From the IMG/VR virus record IMGVR_UViG_2663763377_000009: DNA of 10,931 bases. One strand, 5' to 3'. The position numbers were made by a program, and so were the translations under genes. Every line of letters begins with the position of its first letter. Within the stretch, counting starts at the first letter, position 1. Positions 3,013 to 10,805 of the stretch are shown here, piece by piece. A model generated the notes under the pieces. That model did not search any database. It saw only the letters and a list, made by a program, of their open reading frames with translations, and was not told the origin of the DNA. Source of the DNA: a virus. Its lineage: Duplodnaviria > Heunggongvirae > Uroviricota > Caudoviricetes.

Positions 3013-3693
3013 TCATCGCCATTGCTCCCCAAATACAAAACCAATTTCAGCCAGTGCCTCGTCCATTTTTTCGATGAACTCCGGCACCATCTCGTCAAAA
3101 CTCGCCATGTACTTTTCATCCCGCTCAACCACGACATAATGCAGTCCTTCACGCTTCATACGCGGGTCATAGTTGGCAAAGTACCAGGCATCTTTTCGTG
3201 TTACCCACATGCTGTACTGCACCTGGGCCATGTAAGCCGACTTTATGGCCTCGAAACCACCGAGCCGGAACTTCATGAAATCCCGGGAGGTAAACGGGCA
3301 TTTCAGCTCAAGGCCATTGCCGTCACTGCATAAACCATCGGGAGAGCAGGCGGTGCGCATACTTTCGTCGCGATAGATGATCGGGGATTCAGTAACATTC
3401 ACGCCGGAAGTGAATTCAAACAGGGTTCTGGCGTCGTTCTCGTACTGTTTTCCCCAGGCCAGCGCCTTAGCATTAACTTCCGGAGCCACACCGGTGCAAA
3501 CCTCAGCCAGCAGGGTGTGGAGGTAGGACATTTTCATGTCAGGCCACTTCTTTCCGGAGCGGGGTTTTGCTATCACGTTGTGAACTTCTGAAGCGGTGAT
3601 GACGCCGAGCCGTAATTTGTGCCACGCATCATCCCCCTGTTCGACAGCTCTCACATCGATCCCGGTACGCTGCAGGATAATGTCCGGTGTCAT
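3013..3693 (-). CDS. exo: Lambda exonuclease (Red-alpha), 226 aa
   Basis: Translation [40 protein letters not shown]... matches my recollection of phage lambda Exo almost residue for residue; same length; directly downstream of bet with ATGA overlap. Confidence 0.95.
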
Positions 3694-4475
3694 GCTGCCA
3701 CCTTCTGCTCTGCGGCTTTCTGTTTCAGGAATCCAAGAGCTTTTACTGCTTCGGCCTGTGTCAGTTCTGACGATGCACGAATGTCGCGGCGAAATATCTG
3801 GGAACAGAGTGGCAATAAGTCGTCATCCCATGTTTTATCCAGGGCGATCAGCAGAGTGTTAATCTCCTGCATGGTTTCATCGTTAACCGGAGTGATGTCG
3901 CGTTCCGGCTGGCGTTCTGCAGTGTATGCAGTATTTTCGACAATGCGCTCGGCTTCATCCTTGTCATAGATACCAGCAAATCCGAAGGCCAGACGGGCAC
4001 ACTGAATCATGGCTTTATGCCGTAACATTCGTTTGGGATGCGACTGCCACGGCCCCGTGATTTCTCTGCCTTCGCGAGTTTTGAATGGTTCGCGGCGGCA
4101 TTCATCCATCCATTCGGTAACGCAGATCGGATGATTACGGTCCTTGCGGTAAATCCGGCATGTACAGGATTCATTGTCCTGTTCAAAGTCCATGCCGTCA
4201 AACTGCTGGTTTTCGTTGATGATGCGGGACCAGCCATCAACGCCCACCACCGGAACGATGCCGTTCTGCTTATCAGGGAAGGCGTAAATTTCTTTCGTCC
4301 ACGGATTAAGGCCGTATTGGTTGGCGACGATCAGCAATGCGATGAACTGCGCATCGCTGGCATCGCCTTTAAATGCTGTCTGGCGAAGAGTGGTGATCAG
4401 TTCCTGTGGGTCGACAGAATCCATGCCGACACGTTCAGCCAGCTTCCCTGCCAGCGTTGCGAGTGCTGTACTCAT
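3690..4475 (-). CDS. bet: Lambda Beta single-strand annealing protein (Red-beta), 261 aa
   Basis: Translation [37 protein letters not shown]... matches recalled lambda Bet; length 261 aa; gam-bet-exo order. Confidence 0.95.
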
Positions 4476-4480
4476 CCGTT

Positions 4481-4777
4481 TTATACCTCTGAATCAATAT
4501 CAACCTGATGGTGAGCAATGGTTTCAACCATGTACCGGATGTGTTCTGCCATGCGCTCCTGAAACTCAACATCGTCATCAAACGCACGGGTAATGGCTTT
4601 TTTGCTGGCCCCGTGGCGTTGCAAATGATCGATGCATAGCGATTCAAACAGGTGCTGGGGCAGGCCTTTTTCCATGTCGTCTGCCAGTTCTGCCTCTTTC
4701 TCTTCACGGGCGATCTGCTGGTAGTGACGCGCCCAGCTTTGAGCCTCAAGACGATCCTGAATGTAATAAGCGTTCAT
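4481..4777 (-). CDS. gam: Gam, RecBCD inhibitor (98 aa, corresponds to the short GamS form)
   Basis: Translation [44 protein letters not shown]... matches recalled lambda GamS; AGGAG 8 nt upstream; only 75 nt separate it from the upstream gene, so no long GamL form is possible here. Confidence 0.9.
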
Positions 4778-4852: not shown

Positions 4853-5059
4853 TTAGTGATTCAGGCCGTTACCGCGTCCGTCGAGAAAAACTTCCACGAG
4901 CAAATCACGGGTATAAGTGCGCTCGATGCCGCGATGCAGATAAAGCCGTCCGCGTAAATTAGCTGATGCAGTCCAGGTACCATCTTTGTGTTTGACCAGC
5001 ATTCCTGGCATGACCGCACCTCGATTAACGGTCTGCGTTCCGTAATGTTGATGAACCAT
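4853..5059 (-). CDS. Hypothetical 68-aa protein at the position lambda uses for kil (MVHQHYGTQTVNRGAVMPGMLVKHKDGTW...)
   Basis: Start chosen at the internal ATG preceded by AGGAG plus 5 nt; the longer 136-aa frame in the track begins with TTG and has no ribosome-binding site. Function is by synteny only. Confidence 0.5.
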   Translation of the reverse strand: MVHQHYGTQTVNRGAVMPGMLVKHKDGTWTASANLRGRLYLHRGIERTYTRDLLVEVFLDGRGNGLNH

Positions 5060-5336
5060 AAAAACTCCTGCCCGTAAGCTGGGCTGCTGAACATATAGAG
5101 ACTTCTGCGCGTATTCAGGCGGTGGATGGCCGCCGGTTGTCATAACTAAGCCGCCTCGTTGAAGCGACTGAGGTATGAGGTGTTGAGTTGATTTCAGCTG
5201 GTCACACCGACGTTCACACGTCCGTTTCACCCCTCGCACTCCCCGGAGCCTGCTGAAATTCAAGCTGCGGATCTAAGCGGTCATCGCAACGGTGAATCAG
5301 GTGGTTGCCGTATCGTTGTGTTGTTGCGATGAACTC

Positions 5337-5365
5337 ATTTAAAACTATAGTTGTTTTACCGTCAA
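5337..5365 (-). promoter_or_regulatory. Putative pL promoter with embedded OL operator (-35 TTGACG, 17-nt spacer, -10 TTAAAT, read on the minus strand)
   Basis: Minus-strand segment gttgTTGACGgtaaaacaactatagttTTAAATgagttc is nearly colinear with the PR segment gttgTTGACTaaaaacaaccatagtttTAATCTtgattc; both carry GTTGTT/AACAAC dyads. Confidence 0.5.
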
Positions 5366-5500
5366 CAACAAAAGTTGTTTCATTGGTTGTTTTAGATATA
5401 ACTGGTTGTATTTAGGATGGATTTATTTTGTGACTTGCATCGCATAGCGATAACTGAAGCGGGGGGTATGGTGGTTTTTTGAACGGTGTGTGATGAGGGG

Positions 5501-5531
5501 AGGCAAAAGAAAACCCGGCACGACGGCCGGG
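5501..5531 (-). terminator. Rho-independent terminator ending the cI to cassette transcript (lambda t-imm equivalent)
   Basis: 6-bp GC stem CCCGGC/GCCGGG with a 6-nt loop, followed on the minus strand by TTTTCTTTTG, 9 nt after the stop of the 168-aa gene. Confidence 0.6.
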
Positions 5532-5539
5532 GAGGGGGG

Positions 5540-6046
5540 TCATTTTAATCTATCAAGGAGTGACTCTCTTTCCTTCTTCTCTGATTCTCTTCGGTTTAAT
5601 AACGCTTTAAACTCTTGAAGCTCAACCATTATTTTATGAACGAATACACTGGTATAGAGAGAAATAAAGAGTAATCCACCTGAAATTTTTAAGACCCTGA
5701 AGAGTAGGGCTTGATCATTTGTGCTTGCTATTAACCCCAAGATTACAAACAAAGTTGAAAATACATAGAAAGCTAATAATAAAACCAATTTCAGTCTCTT
5801 GGATTTGACTATTGGCACTAATCGCCTAACCTCACTAGGGGTTAAAGACGAGTGGTCATTGGCCTCATTTGCCTTAAAAATGGCTTGTATACAATATGAT
5901 AATGGCAATTGCATGAGTCCAACCACAGCCCACGGAGCAGTTAGGACAACACCCGGTGTAATATAGCCCAATGCTGACTTGAACAAAAAGTAACCAGCAA
6001 AATAGAAGACCAACATACCAATAAGGTGGATGATGTTCGATTTCAT
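5540..6046 (-). CDS. Small integral membrane protein, 168 aa, about four predicted transmembrane helices and a charged C-terminal tail; occupies the rexB position
   Basis: Hydrophobic stretches IIHLIGMLVFYFAGYFLF, GVVLTAPWAVVGLMQLPL, LKLVLLLAFYVFSTLFVILGLIAS, LLFISLYTSVFV; strong AAGGAGG 7 nt upstream of the ATG; AT-rich codon usage unlike flanking genes; no similarity to RexB that I can see. Confidence 0.75.
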   Translation of the reverse strand: MKSNIIHLIGMLVFYFAGYFLFKSALGYITPGVVLTAPWAVVGLMQLPLSYCIQAIFKANEANDHSSLTPSEVRRLVPIVKSKRLKLVLLLAFYVFSTLFVILGLIASTNDQALLFRVLKISGGLLFISLYTSVFVHKIMVELQEFKALLNRRESEKKERESLLDRLK

Positions 6047-6067
6047 TATCGCCCTCCTTTTGGTAGG

Positions 6068-7090
6068 TTATTTTGCAACCAATTCTCCGGCATCAAGTTT
6101 TGAGAACAGCCACTTATGCATTTTTAAGAATAAATCATTTTCATCAATAATGCCATTGTTATATTCAACGCTAATTTTTCCGGATAATTTTATCTCTTTT
6201 CCCGTTATTTCCCCACCGCCTTGAAGTTTGATGCTAATATCATCCTCATCTAGATGTCGTAGTGAGGTAGCAATACTGTCTATAACAGCTTGACCGCTAT
6301 CATTTGTTTTTCTGAAGTATGTAATCTCGAGGCTTACTTGTAAATTGGCCTCATCTAATGAATCTTTAATGTTTATATCATTTGCCCAGTTATCGCCAAA
6401 AAATGCTTTTAGTAGCGCACCTCCTTTCCCTATTGGGCGGTATTTTATTGTCTTCACCGAACCATTTGAAAAGGAGGGTGTTTGGTTCTCTGAATTTTTA
6501 ACTTCTGAAGTAATGGGTAATCCACCAATTTTTATGCTCTTGGCTGGTGCTTTCTCCATTTTTTTCATCGTTTCTTCGGATGGCTTATCTTGAAGCATTA
6601 ACACAGATTCTTTTTCATCTGTGAATGTATTAATTAGCCAATTCAAATGCGCCTCAAGCTCCCTTGCTCGAAGCGATGTGGATTGAACGATCATGACATG
6701 GTTGTTTAGTACACCAAAATATAAAATTGAATCTACAAACTCTCTTTTTTTGTCACTACGTTTATCTCCATCAATAATTATATCATTAGACGTGATGGAG
6801 TTAATGTCATAAAATTTAACATTATCACTAAGCTCTAATAGAGACTGGCTTTTGTCTTTTTCAAATAAAACCAGTTGCCCAAAAAGTATAGTTTTGTATG
6901 TGTCGCTTTTATTTAAGAAACGACACCCCGAATTTTCATCTGAAGGTGTTATTTTTTCTTGTCTACTAAGTACTTTTTCTGCAACGCCGCCCTCACCTAT
7001 AATACTAAGTAGTATGTTTTGTAATGATGATTTGCTGTGTGGGATTACTGCTTTTTTATAATGAACGACTTTTTGTCTGTTATCTTTCAT
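6068..7090 (-). CDS. Unknown soluble protein, 340 aa; occupies the rexA position downstream of the repressor
   Basis: Long uninterrupted ORF, Lys/Asp/Asn/Ile-rich, no catalytic motif recognised; separated by 21 nt from the downstream membrane protein gene, suggesting one operon. Confidence 0.75.
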   Translation of the reverse strand: MKDNRQKVVHYKKAVIPHSKSSLQNILLSIIGEGGVAEKVLSRQEKITPSDENSGCRFLNKSDTYKTILFGQLVLFEKDKSQSLLELSDNVKFYDINSITSNDIIIDGDKRSDKKREFVDSILYFGVLNNHVMIVQSTSLRARELEAHLNWLINTFTDEKESVLMLQDKPSEETMKKMEKAPAKSIKIGGLPITSEVKNSENQTPSFSNGSVKTIKYRPIGKGGALLKAFFGDNWANDINIKDSLDEANLQVSLEITYFRKTNDSGQAVIDSIATSLRHLDEDDISIKLQGGGEITGKEIKLSGKISVEYNNGIIDENDLFLKMHKWLFSKLDAGELVAK

Positions 7091-7212: not shown

Positions 7213-7902
7213 CTACCCATGCTTCCTGTAGGTCTGCGGCATGCTCCCAATAACTTTCCCGAAGATAAACACCCGGTTCATCTCGTCTTTCTCAATTGGG
7301 TCCCACGGCGAGTAGCTCTTGTTATCAGAGATAACCAGTAGCTTATCCTTCATCATTTGCAGGCGCTTTACATGGGCTGTGTCGTCGTACAGAAACGCAT
7401 AGATACCATCACCGTCGAAAGATTTAACTGTGATATCAACGAACAGCAGATCACCTGGTTCGATCGTTCCTGACATGCTGTCACCACGCACGTTAATGAT
7501 GCGGATATTTTCCGCCTTCCTACCATCGAACATGTGACGAGCATCGTCAAACGAGTACTCAACCGAGCGTAGAACTTCTACAAACTCACGGTTGATGACT
7601 CCCGGCCCAGCACTGACTTCTATATCAAGAACGTCAATCTTAAAGTATTTGGAATGGCTGACAGTTGATAGTATTGGTTGCACTGTACTGTCTGACATAT
7701 TTCCAACGCCAGAAGATAACCATTCTGCGCGCACACCCAAAGCGTTCGCGATCTCCACGATTTTAGTTGTTTGGTTAGCTTTCCCTGTTTCGATTTTCTG
7801 AATAGCAGCTTGGCTAACCCCGACCAAATCCCCAAGCGCCTTTTGTGTAAGGCCTCGCGCTAATCTGGCTTCTTTAAGTCTTTCTGAGAGTGTTGTTTTC
7901 AT
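7213..7902 (-). CDS. cI-like prophage repressor, 229 aa: N-terminal HTH (XRE type) plus C-terminal S24 LexA-like autopeptidase domain
   Basis: HTH region LTQKALGDLVGVSQAAIQKIETGK; S24 signature GDSM ... VKRL (Ser/Lys dyad); divergent from a Cro-like gene across an operator region. Start set at 7902 because the 22-codon extension to 7968 would run through the PR promoter. Confidence 0.85.
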   Translation of the reverse strand: MKTTLSERLKEARLARGLTQKALGDLVGVSQAAIQKIETGKANQTTKIVEIANALGVRAEWLSSGVGNMSDSTVQPILSTVSHSKYFKIDVLDIEVSAGPGVINREFVEVLRSVEYSFDDARHMFDGRKAENIRIINVRGDSMSGTIEPGDLLFVDITVKSFDGDGIYAFLYDDTAHVKRLQMMKDKLLVISDNKSYSPWDPIEKDEMNRVFIFGKVIGSMPQTYRKHG

Positions 7903-7908
7903 AGTCCA

Positions 7909-7937
7909 AATGTACAACCAAGGTTTTATTCCATCAA
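7909..7937 (-). promoter_or_regulatory. Putative PRM (-35 TTGATG, 17-nt spacer, -10 TACATT on the minus strand), predicted start site at or beside the cI ATG (leaderless)
   Basis: Hexamers read from the sequence; the -10 ends 6 nt before the ATG at 7902, and there is no Shine-Dalgarno, mirroring lambda PRM/cI. Confidence 0.4.
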
Positions 7938-7943
7938 ACGAAA

Positions 7944-7979
7944 ATGGTTGTTGACTAAAAACAACCATAGTTTTAATCT
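7944..7979 (+). promoter_or_regulatory. PR promoter (-35 TTGACT 7951-7956, -10 TAATCT 7974-7979) overlapping a 9-bp-arm dyad operator ATGGTTGTT (gactaaa) AACAACCAT
   Basis: Inverted repeat 7944-7952 / 7960-7968 read directly; 17-nt spacer; GGAGG 5 nt before the ATG at 8007. Confidence 0.55.
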
Positions 7980-8006: not shown

Positions 8007-8237
8007 ATGAACCCAGCTATCAAAACAGCGATCAATATCGTTGGTTCACAAAAGAAACTGGGCGCTGCCTGCGAAGTTTCACAGCAGGCCGTCTATAAGT
8101 GGCTTCACAACAAAGCAAAGGTATCCCCTGAACATGTCGGCAGCATTGTTACGGCTACTGGTGGAGTAGTGAAGGCATACCAGATTCGCCCGGATCTTCC
8201 GAAGTTGTTTCCACACACCGAAAAGAACGCAGCTTAA
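8007..8237 (+). CDS. Cro-like HTH regulator of the YdaS family (76 aa)
   Basis: Divergent from the repressor; motif AINIVGSQKKLGAACEVSQQAVYKWL ... ATGG resembles YdaS-type small HTH proteins of E. coli prophages. Confidence 0.8.
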   Translation: MNPAIKTAINIVGSQKKLGAACEVSQQAVYKWLHNKAKVSPEHVGSIVTATGGVVKAYQIRPDLPKLFPHTEKNAA

Positions 8238-8249
8238 ATTTCCATTTCA

Positions 8250-8262
8250 CGCTCTTTAACAA
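8250..8262 (+). promoter_or_regulatory. boxA element CGCTCTTTAACAA (nutR-like position between the cro and cII analogues)
   Basis: Matches the boxA consensus (rrn boxA GCTCTTTAACAA; lambda nut boxA CGCTCTTA...). No GC-rich boxB-like hairpin is evident directly downstream. Confidence 0.5.
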
Positions 8263-8306: not shown

Positions 8307-8846
8307 ATGCAACCACTTACATACCAACAGACTAGCGGATTTAGCCCGACTGCGGTGATAAATCGTTCTCAAACAAAACAGGTGCCAGGCCACGAAAAAA
8401 TCCGTGATGCCGTCCGCGCCTGGTCGGCTGAAGATAATCAGGATGTCGTTGCCACACTCATTGTGAATGAGTATCGGGAGCAGGGCGGCGGCGCCATCGA
8501 TTTCCCTGATGATGTCAGCCGTGCACGCCAGAAGCTGTTCCGCTTCCTCGATAACAAATTCGATTCTGAAAAATACCGAAATAACGTGCGTGAACTGACC
8601 CCGGCAATTCTGGCGGTACTACCGCTGGAATATCGCGGTTACCTGGTTGAGCAGGATAGCTTCATGGCTAGGTTGGCTGAAATGGAAAAGGAACTCAGTG
8701 AGGCAAAACAGGCTGTCATTCTCAACGCACCACGCCACCAGAAACTGAAGGAGATGAGTGAAGGTATTGTGTCGATGTTTCGTGTGGACCCGGATCTGGC
8801 TGGTCCATTGATGGCGATGGTTACCACCATGTTGGGGGCAATATGA
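8307..8846 (+). CDS. YdaT-family protein (179 aa), cII functional analogue candidate
   Basis: Motifs EYREQGGGAIDFP and LTPAILAVLPLEYRGYL resemble recalled YdaT of the Rac and CP-933P prophages; located where lambda has cII; AAGGAG 6 nt upstream. Confidence 0.7.
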   Translation: MQPLTYQQTSGFSPTAVINRSQTKQVPGHEKIRDAVRAWSAEDNQDVVATLIVNEYREQGGGAIDFPDDVSRARQKLFRFLDNKFDSEKYRNNVRELTPAILAVLPLEYRGYLVEQDSFMARLAEMEKELSEAKQAVILNAPRHQKLKEMSEGIVSMFRVDPDLAGPLMAMVTTMLGAI

Positions 8847-8932: not shown

Positions 8933-9862
8933 ATGGCAAACACTGCTGAGATATTCAATTTTCCAGTGCCGGATGTGGCACAAAAGGAGCCGCGCGTGGC
9001 AGATCTCGATGATGGTTATACGCGCATTGCAAATGAGTTGCTGGAAGCTGTGATGCTGGCCGGATTAACACAGCACCAGCTTCTGGTCTTCCTGGCTGTC
9101 ATGCGCAAAACATATGGCTTTAATAAAAAACTGGATTGGGTGAGCAACGAGCAACTTTCCGAGTTGACCGGGATATTGCCGCACAAGTGTTCTGCTGCAA
9201 AAAGTGTTCTGGTAAAGCGTGGGATTTTTATTCAGAGCGGGCGGAATATCGGCATTAATAATGTGGTCAGTGAATGGTCAACATTACCCGAATCAGGTAA
9301 GAAAAATAAAGTTTACCTGAAAGAGGTAAATTTACCTGAATCAGGTAAGAAAAGTTTACCCAAATCAGGTAAAGACGTTTACCCGAATCAGGTAAACACA
9401 AAAGACAAACTAACAAAAGACAATATAAAACCTTTTTCGTCCGAGAATTCTGGCGAATCCTCTGACCAGCCAGAAAACGATCTTCCTGTGGTGAAACCGG
9501 ATGCTGCAATTCAGAGCGGCAGCAAGTGGGGGACAGCAGAAGACCTGACCGCCGCAGAGTGGATGTTTGACATGGTGAAGACCATCGCGCCATCAGCCAG
9601 AAAACCGAATTTTGCAGGGTGGGCCAACGACATCCGCCTGATGCGTGAGCGTGACGGGCGTAACCATCGCGACATGTGCGTTCTGTTCCGCTGGGCCTGC
9701 CAGGACAACTTCTGGTCCGGTAACGTGCTGAGTCCAGCAAAACTCCGCGACAAGTGGACTCAGCTCGAAATTAACCGCAACAAGCAACAGGCTGGTGTGA
9801 CTGCCAGCAAACCAAAACTCGACCTGACAAACACTGACTGGATTTACGGGGTGGAGCTATGA
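8933..9862 (+). CDS. O: Replication initiator protein O (309 aa from MANTAEIFNF...; an in-frame ATG at 8843 would add 30 codons)
   Basis: C-terminal half (ENSGESSDQPENDLPVVKPDAAIQSGSKWGTAEDLTAAEWMFDMVKTIAPSARKPNFAGWANDIRLMRERDGRNHRDMCVLFRWACQDNFWSGNVLSPAKLRDKWTQLEINRNKQQAGVTASKPKLDLTNTDWIYGVEL) matches recalled lambda O; GGGAGGAA RBS before 8933; contains the iteron array. Confidence 0.9.
   Translation: MANTAEIFNFPVPDVAQKEPRVADLDDGYTRIANELLEAVMLAGLTQHQLLVFLAVMRKTYGFNKKLDWVSNEQLSELTGILPHKCSAAKSVLVKRGIFIQSGRNIGINNVVSEWSTLPESGKKNKVYLKEVNLPESGKKSLPKSGKDVYPNQVNTKDKLTKDNIKPFSSENSGESSDQPENDLPVVKPDAAIQSGSKWGTAEDLTAAEWMFDMVKTIAPSARKPNFAGWANDIRLMRERDGRNHRDMCVLFRWACQDNFWSGNVLSPAKLRDKWTQLEINRNKQQAGVTASKPKLDLTNTDWIYGVEL
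9285..9440. repeat. Phage origin of replication: five ~18-19-bp iterons (consensus about TTTACCCGAATCAGGTAA) followed by an AT-rich segment
   Basis: Direct repeats at about 9285-9302, 9312-9330, 9332-9349, 9355-9374 and 9378-9397, then acaaaagacaaactaacaaaagacaatataaaacc; lies inside O, as in lambda. Confidence 0.8.
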
Positions 9863-10449
9863 AAAATATTGCCGCGCAGATGATTAACTTTGACCGTGAG
9901 CAGATGCGTCGAATCGCCAACAACATGCCGGAACAATACGACGAAAAGCCGCAGGTGCAGCAGGTGGCGCAGATCATCAACGGTGTGTTCAGCCAGCTGC
10001 TTGCGACATTTCCGGCAAGCCTCGCGAACCGCGACCAGAACGAGCTGAACGAAATCCGCCGTCAGTGGGTTATGGCTTTCCGTGAAAATGGAATTACCAC
10101 TATGGAGCAGGTTAACGCCGGAATGCGCGTGGCCCGCCGACAGGAGCGACCATTCCTGCCGTCGCCCGGCCAGTTCGTAGCGTGGTGTAAGCAGAGTGGC
10201 GGGGCGTTAGGTATCACTGTTGACCAAGTCATAACCGAATACTGGGATTGGCGTAATCGTTCCTTCGAATTCACTTCCAGCGAGCATTTCCCGTGGTCAC
10301 AGCCTGTCATGTACCACATCTGCGTCGAACTGCGCCACCGCAGCACAGAGCGCCAGTTAACGCATGGTGAGCTGGCGCGTGAAGCCGGCGATCTGCTGGA
10401 CATGTGGGAGAGGCGCGTCACCGAGGGCAAACCAGTACCGCCTGTATAG
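9859..10449 (+). CDS. P: Replication protein P homologue (196 aa), N-terminal ~110 aa lambda-like, C-terminal half divergent and apparently shorter than lambda P
   Basis: MKNIAAQMINFDREQMRRIANNMPEQYDEKPQVQQVAQIINGVFSQLLATFPASLANRDQNE... matches recalled lambda P up to about FVAWC; the rest aligns only loosely; start overlaps the O stop (ATGA). Confidence 0.8.
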   Translation: MKNIAAQMINFDREQMRRIANNMPEQYDEKPQVQQVAQIINGVFSQLLATFPASLANRDQNELNEIRRQWVMAFRENGITTMEQVNAGMRVARRQERPFLPSPGQFVAWCKQSGGALGITVDQVITEYWDWRNRSFEFTSSEHFPWSQPVMYHICVELRHRSTERQLTHGELAREAGDLLDMWERRVTEGKPVPPV

Positions 10450-10510
10450 TAAAATACTATATTATTTTCTATGTATCACATGCACAGCGATAAAACCGGA
10501 TAAATGATTT

Positions 10511-10542
10511 ACACTGTAAAGATCTATCTGTCTTTACAGTGT
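10511..10542. promoter_or_regulatory. Perfect 12-bp inverted repeat ACACTGTAAAGA (8-nt spacer) TCTTTACAGTGT, ~30 bp upstream of the hicA promoter
   Basis: Read directly; no U-tract follows on the plus strand, so an operator (for example for HicB) or a structural element is as likely as a terminator for P. Confidence 0.4.
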
Positions 10543-10570
10543 GGTTCAGAAGTCATGCGAATGAAATAAT

Positions 10571-10599
10571 TTGCTTTTGTGTGTATGCGTGTGTATAAT
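10571..10599 (+). promoter_or_regulatory. Strong sigma-70 promoter for hicAB (-35 TTGCTT, 17-nt spacer, TG-extended -10 TATAAT)
   Basis: Perfect TATAAT at 10594-10599 with TG at -15/-14; GGGAGG RBS at 10613-10618 before the hicA ATG. Confidence 0.6.
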
Positions 10600-10622
10600 T
10601 GTTTTCAGGTTAGGGAGGACAT

Positions 10623-10805
10623 ATGAAATCTGCTGACCTGTTGAAAGAACTGATAGCTGCTGGTTGCGAGTTGAAACGGCATAAGGCAAGCAGTCACCAG
10701 ATATGGTGGTCGCCAATAACAGGAAAAACTTTTCCTGTTCCTCATCCTAAAAAGGACTTGCCGCTAGGTACTGTCAGATCGATCAAAAAAATGGCGGGGA
10801 TTTAA
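10623..10805 (+). CDS. hicA: HicA-family toxin (mRNA interferase), 60 aa
   Basis: MKSADLLKELIAAGCELKRHKASSHQIWWSPITGKTFPVPHPKKDLPLGTVRSIKKMAGI fits the HicA/YcfA pattern (ELxRxKGSH ... VPxHxxKDLxxGTxxSIxKxAG). Confidence 0.85.
   Translation: MKSADLLKELIAAGCELKRHKASSHQIWWSPITGKTFPVPHPKKDLPLGTVRSIKKMAGI

Follow-up and report, generated by a model that had tools for sequence, protein, structure and literature searches.

The stretch of DNA analysed here, which we call the window, comprises 10,931 nucleotides (nt) of IMG/VR record IMGVR_UViG_2663763377_000009 (Caudoviricetes) and is the early region of a lambdoid Escherichia coli prophage (Table 1). Between the early-left promoter, pL, and kil, the first gene of the early-left operon, lies an interval of about 270 nt (5060-5336, minus strand) that appears to be transcribed as an untranslated leader, and this leader is our subject. 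In lambda, a long structured untranslated leader (~220-270 nt) heads the early-left operon, directly after pL and on the left border of the immunity region. N-independent lambdoid phages such as HK022 and HK639 are known, and to our knowledge put is the only mechanism that has been worked out among them. A recent survey notes other lambdoid phages that lack N and leaves them unexplained (PMC12315714). The exact leader sequence of the window is found in E. coli strain 317. The leader is also present in 2210 of the 5426 complete E. coli genomes (~41%), O157:H7 and ST131-type strains among them. At least 16 phage genome records have it as well, with Perceval, 4A7, Lambda_4C10, PhiR5_1, Turner and IdasGreatGrand as close relatives, so it is not a chance feature. 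We found no description of this leader type in the literature.

Table 1. Features of the window, in order of position; leader elements are given on the minus strand, from which they are transcribed.
Feature	Position	Strand	Remarks
int	1-1143	minus	
xis	1133-1369	minus	
TraR/DksA-like gene	2058-2279	minus	
Intrinsic terminator	2341-2355	minus	GGAGCTACAGGCTCC then TTTTTT; strong
orf61 homologue	2378-2659	minus	
exo	3013-3693	minus	
bet	3690-4475	minus	
gam	4481-4777	minus	
kil	4853-5059	minus	68 amino acids (aa); cell-division (FtsZ) inhibitor family; first gene of early-left operon
kil-proximal end of leader	5060-5117	minus	GCGCAGAAGUC box 5110-5100; small hairpin F 5084-5070; Shine-Dalgarno (SD) sequence GGAG 5068-5065
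Hairpin E	5118-5134	minus	GGCGG-CCAUCCA-CCGCC; sequence invariant, the same in nearly all of >100 variants
Hairpin D	5141-5177	minus	Long stem CAUA to UAUG; conserved apical UUC-NNN-GAG
Linker	5178-5199	minus	C-rich, G-poor; tandem TCAAC repeat 5191-5182
Hairpin C (predicted)	5200-5231	minus	GUGA tetraloop here, 6-nt loop in most relatives
Hairpin B (predicted)	5235-5279	minus	dG -16.1, z only -1.25; weak support
Hairpin A	5281-5332	minus	Stem 5331-5323 with 5282-5290; CA-rich 32-nt loop; at predicted 5' end of transcript
pL and operator repeats	5337-5383	minus	-35 TTGACG 5365-5360; 17-nt spacer; -10 TTAAAT 5342-5337
Intrinsic terminator	5514-5531	minus	CCCGGCCGTCGTGCCGGG then TTTTCTTTTG; closes cI-moron operon
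168-aa membrane protein	5540-6046	minus	rexAB position
340-aa protein	6068-7090	minus	rexAB position
cI-type repressor	7213-7968		
YdaS-type cro	8007-8237	plus	
YdaT-type cII	8307-8846	plus	Followed by O and P, also rightward
O			
P			

The placement of pL had been proposed from the letters of the window alone, without database searches (the sequence-only reading), and it holds: the pL region at 5339-5357 is an inverted copy of the pR region at 7958-7976 (19 nt, 95%), a second inverted copy relates 5361-5383 to 7933-7955 (23 nt, 74%), and usable promoter hexamers are present. The -10 hexamer first named, TATAGT, is too close to the -35 (10 nt) and was replaced by the one in Table 1. Transcription probably starts at about 5330, near the 5336 first given, because the immunity types differ upstream of ~5332 and are alike downstream of it. 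Upstream, the terminator at 5514-5531 is predicted to shield pL from transcription of the cI-moron operon. The same terminator is present in Perceval, and in PhiR5_1 it has a slightly different stem and loop.

The first credible gene after pL had been taken to be a 68-aa open reading frame (ORF) starting at 5059, and this ORF is kil. It matches phrog_294 over residues 1-68 (E 1e-37), its SD sequence stands 6 nt ahead of the ATG, and in other genomes RefSeq has the same 68-aa protein. Aligned with Kil of phi80, HK225, HK639 and others, it shares the motif HYGT...R..V.PG...H...T..SA of a family whose members are ~68-73 aa long; identity is 75-85% to HK225, KO-TP1 and S9-5, and 38-42% to phi80, CobraSix and HK639. 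By this homology the product would inhibit FtsZ and cell division.

Two longer frames cross the leader, one of 136 aa that begins with TTG and one of 96 aa that begins with the ATG at 5143, and either might be imagined to encode a real N- or Nun-like protein fused to Kil. The first has an arginine-rich N-terminus, and gene callers have annotated such frames: in Perceval (OV696612.1, 32624-33043) and PhiR5_1 (PV340545.1, 7200-7490) the leader is included in a 'Kil' of 139 aa and 96 aa, respectively. However, the ~120 IMG/VR copies of the leader that we surveyed include natural variants with a duplication of TCAAC (5 nt, at 5191-5182), with one nucleotide deleted at 5138 or with a spacer 2 nt shorter. 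Since these indels break both frames and kil is intact in every frame-breaking variant, neither frame is coding. The distance between the AUG at 5143 and hairpin E also changes the frame in several phage lineages. The N-terminal 68 aa of the 136-aa frame have no match in Pfam or PHROGs, so that nothing beyond the Kil part is recognised there, BLASTP finds no similarity of the frame to lambda N (E 6.4) or Nun (E 45), and the RefSeq call is the 68-aa Kil. We therefore regard a long-frame protein as extremely improbable. A shorter leader peptide, MTTGGHPPP from the ATG at 5143, was also considered and rejected, as spacing shifts of 1, 2 and 3 nt in several lineages alter its frame and keep the nucleotides. 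On this evidence the leader is non-coding, the 5' untranslated region (UTR) of kil. The sequence-only reading had dismissed the 136-aa frame as a gene, had found its arginine-rich N-terminus unlike N, and had described an untranslated leader of ~270 nt with no N gene after pL; the searches and the indels bear out all of these points.

Faulty calls across the leader are not confined to Perceval and PhiR5_1: phages 1W and 3W are among the records that have them, and 'membrane carboxypeptidase' is another label in public records. The indels show that the 139-aa and 96-aa 'Kil' and the 'membrane carboxypeptidase' calls are over-extended or spurious.

We looked for N-like proteins elsewhere and found none among the other ORFs of the window and none annotated in Perceval from 25.0 to 50.1 kb or in PhiR5_1 from 1 to 24 kb, the regions that we read. 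A nut site was taken to consist, in both early operons, of a boxA (CGCTCTTTA-like) and, no more than ~10 nt beyond it, a short GC hairpin whose GNRA-like loop is conserved. The leader has no boxA with 3 or fewer mismatches, which agrees with the initial observation that this strand lacks one. Hairpin C was tried as a boxB and rejected: its GUGA loop is a minority allele, closed by a pair (5218-5213) that just 3 of the 69 variants possess, and such a boxB-like GNRA loop cannot be called conserved. Like the lambda pL-nutL-N region, the window has a long, structured, untranslated leader directly after pL, but it lacks boxA, a conserved boxB, the N gene and the terminator tL1.

The other known solution is put, which acts in cis by binding the zinc-binding domain of the RNA polymerase beta' subunit (PMC9378689). 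With HK022 and HK639 the window shares the absence of an N gene, and any processivity signal would likewise be an RNA just after pL (PMC9378689). It had been suggested that the leader might encode a put-like antiterminator as in HK022. We defined put as a two-stem RNA of ~70 nt located just after pL, with the core CGAACGGC...GUCGG...GGCG.G.UCA.GA.GA...CAAU, and built a covariance model (R1) from six putL sites (HK022, HK639, CobraSix, S9-5, phiEt88 and UPF_BP1). The model scores the putL sites of HK639, CobraSix and S9-5, which belong to the training family, at 94-101 bits, and it recovers HK022 putR, which was outside the training set, at 36 bits (E 2e-7). With filters off and E <= 10, it finds no match in the leader and none anywhere plausible in the window. 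Nor does it find any in the regions read of Perceval and PhiR5_1. Local alignment of the leader with HK022 and HK639 put also shows no similarity, so the leader matches put in neither sequence nor structure. Apart from its position after pL, nothing speaks for an HK022-type put RNA in the leader, and we give it next to no chance.

Similarly, Rfam 15 at gathering thresholds reports no family in the window. At E <= 10 there are sub-threshold matches only, all on the opposite strand and none on the strand of the leader. One of these, ALIL, reaches 20.8 bits (E 0.004) where the threshold is 50; it was discarded because the match depends on the GGCGG/CCGCC hairpin as read on the opposite strand. 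The broader suggestion of the sequence-only reading, that the leader may encode a cis-acting RNA, fares better than its HK022 version, given that a conserved structured RNA is indeed present.

Four parts make up the leader, which is a mosaic: a 5' stem-loop, a segment of ~130 nt that we saw only in E. coli prophages, a module made of hairpins D and E, and a box with a small hairpin and the ribosome-binding site. The D/E block (5118-5177, 60 nt) is shared with phi80, HK225, HK639, CobraSix, Salmonella S9-5, Klebsiella KO-TP1 and Enterobacter ENT1, and it occurs in more than 100 IMG/VR sequence variants. Hairpin D is a real RNA structure. Across 50 distinct sequences from many phages, 94% of the cells in its stem are paired, compared with 31-47% when the partners are slid, and 8 pairs are changed on both sides (105 cells), with the observed covariation score reached by none of 500 shuffles. 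It is the only structure in the leader with real covariation support. The abundance of U-G pairs indicates that the RNA is that of the leftward strand, and the pairing with CAUA in hairpin D accounts for the invariant AUG at 5143-5141. Folded together, D and E score z -4.7 against shuffles. In CobraSix and in variants reading ATGAGACGG and ATGACACCGG, the length of the spacer from the AUG to hairpin E differs by 1, 2 or 3 nt, so that D/E conserves no peptide. Hairpin E is annotated as a terminator in HK639; we rejected this for the window, where no U-tract follows it.

The GCGCAGAAGUC box, together with one of three alternative forms of hairpin and SD sequence, precedes many unrelated first ORFs in other phages. 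Because the unit of D, E, box, hairpin and SD stands before so many unrelated ORFs, it is a conserved 5'-UTR module of generic type, belonging to the segment that starts with kil or its neighbours. The D/E motif has no Rfam family, and we found no description of it in the literature.

The 5' part of the leader is different in character. We found the segment 5178-5310 (~130 nt, from the loop of hairpin A to the linker) only in E. coli prophages, and from 5297 on, ~120 nt of it are common to every immunity type. All IMG/VR matches to 5180-5297 are at least 90% alike, small indels aside, and at 22 kil loci of other Enterobacteriaceae species, where we sought it for covariation, this segment is absent. 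Hairpin A (dG -12.4, z -2.9) has frequent variants that keep the pairing by wobble (C5331U in 32 of 69, A5330G in 18 of 69). In hairpin B the polymorphism C5264U (23 of 69) retains a G-U pair, with no compensatory double changes, and in hairpin C (dG -13.0, z -3.5) A5225G does the same. A third TCAAC copy in the linker (+5 nt), present in four natural variants, is one of the changes that break the 136-aa frame. Sequence constraint on the B-C segment is moderate and not striking: diversity (pi) is 0.032, equal to that of the kil-gam spacer, compared with 0.058 and 0.051 at third codon positions of kil and gam. The notion of an 'ultra-conserved' leader was dropped, third codon positions being only about twice as diverse.

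Could hairpins A-C (~5200-5332) be a new cis-acting RNA that confers resistance to terminators or Rho, put-like in function and unrelated to put in sequence and structure? The folds of A and C, which beat their shuffles, are consistent with such an RNA, as is the fact that the frequent polymorphisms across A-C are all wobble-compatible. However, there are no compensatory double changes, the segment 5180-5297, taken in full, is no more stable than its shuffles (z -0.09), the constraint on its sequence is only moderate, the segment is not upstream of kil in the 22 other Enterobacteriaceae loci, and the one boxB-like feature, the GNRA loop of hairpin C, is carried by a minority of variants. We consider this explanation unlikely, and return to it below with the arrangement of the related phages.

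Long untranslated leaders can also serve as targets of Rho. The leader could be a Rho/NusG-dependent attenuator that silences the toxic kil when pL leaks in the lysogen, with full induction outrunning the attenuation. It is long and untranslated, and it contains two C-rich, G-poor stretches, the loop of hairpin A and the linker at 5178-5199. Silencing of Rac kilR by Rho/NusG is presented as established in the passage of PMC5793797 that cites Cardinale 2008, and the phi80 annotation places a Rho-dependent terminator, tL1B, ~120 nt after its copy of D/E. On the other hand, the single-stranded stretches are short (about 25-32 nt) with stable hairpins between them, and the leader data would suit a passive 5' UTR just as well. 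An attenuator seems to us rather unlikely.

A small regulatory RNA (sRNA) or sponge is a further candidate. The K-12 Rac prophage provides a precedent in KilS, an Hfq-associated sRNA that was experimentally detected in the kilR 5' UTR (PMC8175672). As in Rac, the kil-family gene of the window is preceded by a long non-coding region, and the prophage has an immunity region of the YdaS/YdaT type. In addition, CAACAACACAAC at 5326-5315 (minus strand), in the loop and stem of hairpin A, is perfectly complementary over 12 nt to the R1 seed of GcvB (gcvB positions 72-83), and CACAACA is the decoy motif by which the prophage anti-sRNA AgvB sponges GcvB (PMC4104026). Nevertheless, KilS has its own terminators, whereas the leader contains none that could free a short RNA. 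Homology to KilS (K-12 b4833) was rejected, with only a 9-nt chance match; no Rfam family lies on the leader strand; and the CA-rich CAACAACACAAC motif is missing from some immunity variants of the leader. We find a KilS-like sRNA or a GcvB decoy improbable.

In every relative outside the window type, a GC hairpin followed by a U-tract stands directly before D/E, corresponding to tL1A in the phi80 annotation. We observed this in phi80, HK225, HK639, CobraSix, S9-5, KO-TP1, ENT1 and two GTDB prophages. Upstream of that terminator there are one to three variable genes, and these variable first genes, including the one annotated as N in phi80, have no match to an N family in PHROGs. Just after pL, HK639, CobraSix and S9-5 have putL, and phi80, HK225, KO-TP1 and a Huaxiibacter prophage have a boxA leader consisting of TGCTTTTTAACAA and ~200 conserved nt. 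The window type has no antitermination signal, no first-gene cassette and no tL1: pL is followed by hairpin A, by ~115 nt comprising B, C and the linker, by D/E and by kil. Compared with the put phages HK639, CobraSix and S9-5, in which put, genes and tL1 come before D/E, the window has D/E directly after the leader. D/E itself is not a substitute for N, because it also occurs in phages with put or a boxA leader, always downstream of tL1.

The boxA leader of the phi80 type is ~230 nt long, with boxA TGCTTTTTAACAA, a small hairpin and a conserved G/A-rich stretch, and its carriers differ in their first pL genes; it may itself be a protein-independent or Nus-only antitermination signal. The leader of the window occupies the same position, has similar first ~30 nt (CAUCG-AAC-A-ACA-CGA) and the same D/E downstream, and shows weak colinear similarity, with a semi-global score of 207 compared with 164 +/- 16 for shuffles, a score reached by 2 of 300. 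It has, however, neither the boxA nor the hairpin that is annotated as nutL core, and the phi80-type leaders precede cassettes and tL1. The best nhmmer alignment of phi80-type leaders coincides with the -10 and start annotated for phi80 pL, but it is weak and not significant (E 2.2). Homology between the two leaders, being only marginal, was not accepted.

The explanation that we favour, and to which we give about an even chance, is that the window type lacks the whole module of antitermination signal, first-gene cassette and tL1, and that kil, gam, bet and exo need no antiterminator since both the signal and the terminator are absent. Once the repressor is lost, transcription from pL would run directly into kil-gam-bet-exo. 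In the relatives tL1 is overcome by N or put; with tL1 missing here, no antiterminator would be required. Hairpins D and E would most likely act on the mRNA, affecting its stability, its processing or the start of translation of the following ORF, and not on RNA polymerase. This simpler reading, in which tL1 is missing too, fits as well as a processivity element does.

Several points weigh against it. Within the early-left operon, the strong terminator at 2341-2355 comes after the orf61 homologue and before the TraR/DksA-like gene, and so stands upstream of xis and int (it is kept in PhiR5_1, with 8 pairs). Expression of xis and int from pL would gain from processive antitermination; as far as the sequence goes, this terminator is the only argument that a processivity device might be needed after all. 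Being untranslated over 270 nt, the leader should in principle be open to Rho, yet none of the known anti-Rho signals is present in it. From +1 on, the leader is preserved intact in both main immunity types and in 41% of the E. coli genomes, which suggests a function, and the function that we assign to D-E is a guess.

Some of the same facts speak for a processivity RNA in A-C. The A-C part fills the slot after pL that is held by putL or the boxA leader in the relatives; it is conserved from +1 across immunity types, in phages of our collection that lack N; the terminator at 2341-2355 lies downstream in its operon; and HK639, whose annotation has a put site in the left operon only, is a precedent for a lone left-operon site. 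However, in the ~120 loci we saw no case of the B-C segment followed by a cassette and terminator, that is, before a cassette and tL1, where an antiterminator would be needed. It is quite unlikely, in our estimation, that the 5' ~130 nt (A-C) represent an unrecognised class of cis-acting RNA that makes RNA polymerase resistant to Rho and/or intrinsic terminators. If they did, this would be a third solution beside N/nut and put, and it would explain how transcription reaches xis and int past the 2341-2355 terminator.

The right operon differs from the left in that an exact rrn-type boxA (GCTCTTTAACAA), the only one in the window, is located at 8251-8262 (plus strand) in the 70-nt spacer between cro and cII. 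Its expectation by chance is ~0.001, and no boxB-like hairpin follows it. The spacer is common to six phage records in our collection; relatives of another immunity type have only 24-30 nt between cro and cII and no boxA. There is no strong plus-strand terminator between cro and Q in PhiR5_1. This boxA may provide Nus-dependent (Nus-factor-only) protection of the right operon against Rho. No link joins it to the left leader. The pR operon holds no second copy of that leader or of its B-C segment. Matches of 15 nt and 13 nt between the leader and the cro-cII spacer were set aside because they are not significant by BLAST (E 6.9).

We also noted some features outside the early-left operon. A perfect 9-bp palindrome, ATGGTTGTT-GACTAAA-AACAACCAT, at 7944-7968 lies across the -35 of pR and the ATG that opens the 251-aa cI frame and is probably an operator. 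The true start of cI is likely a downstream Met, given that relatives annotate 230 aa. The rexAB slot (5540-7090, minus strand) holds a two-gene moron whose products belong to phrog_3482 and phrog_16807, both families of unknown function; Pfam and PADLOC searches with the 340-aa and 168-aa proteins gave no match. In relatives this slot is occupied by a SIR2-family gene or by a pair annotated as HipA toxin and HipD antitoxin, which suggests that the moron is an uncharacterised defence or exclusion pair. The P-like helicase loader (region 9859-10805, plus strand) is 196 aa here and 233 aa in relatives. After P, a 60-aa ORF (10623-10805, plus strand), which we take to be HicA-like from its sequence, matches the PHROG toxin family phrog_353, and P may have been truncated by the insertion of this ORF.

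For annotation, the corrected gene model of kil is that of a 68-aa protein, and the 96-aa and 139-aa annotations in several phage records are wrong. The D/E pair is a well-supported, conserved RNA motif of the lambdoid phages of Enterobacteriaceae and marks the start of the post-tL1 segment. The leader type of the window is one of the commonest early-left arrangements of E. coli prophages, and it comes without N, put or boxA. Either early-left antitermination is dispensable once tL1 has been dropped, or a new processivity RNA is hidden in this leader.

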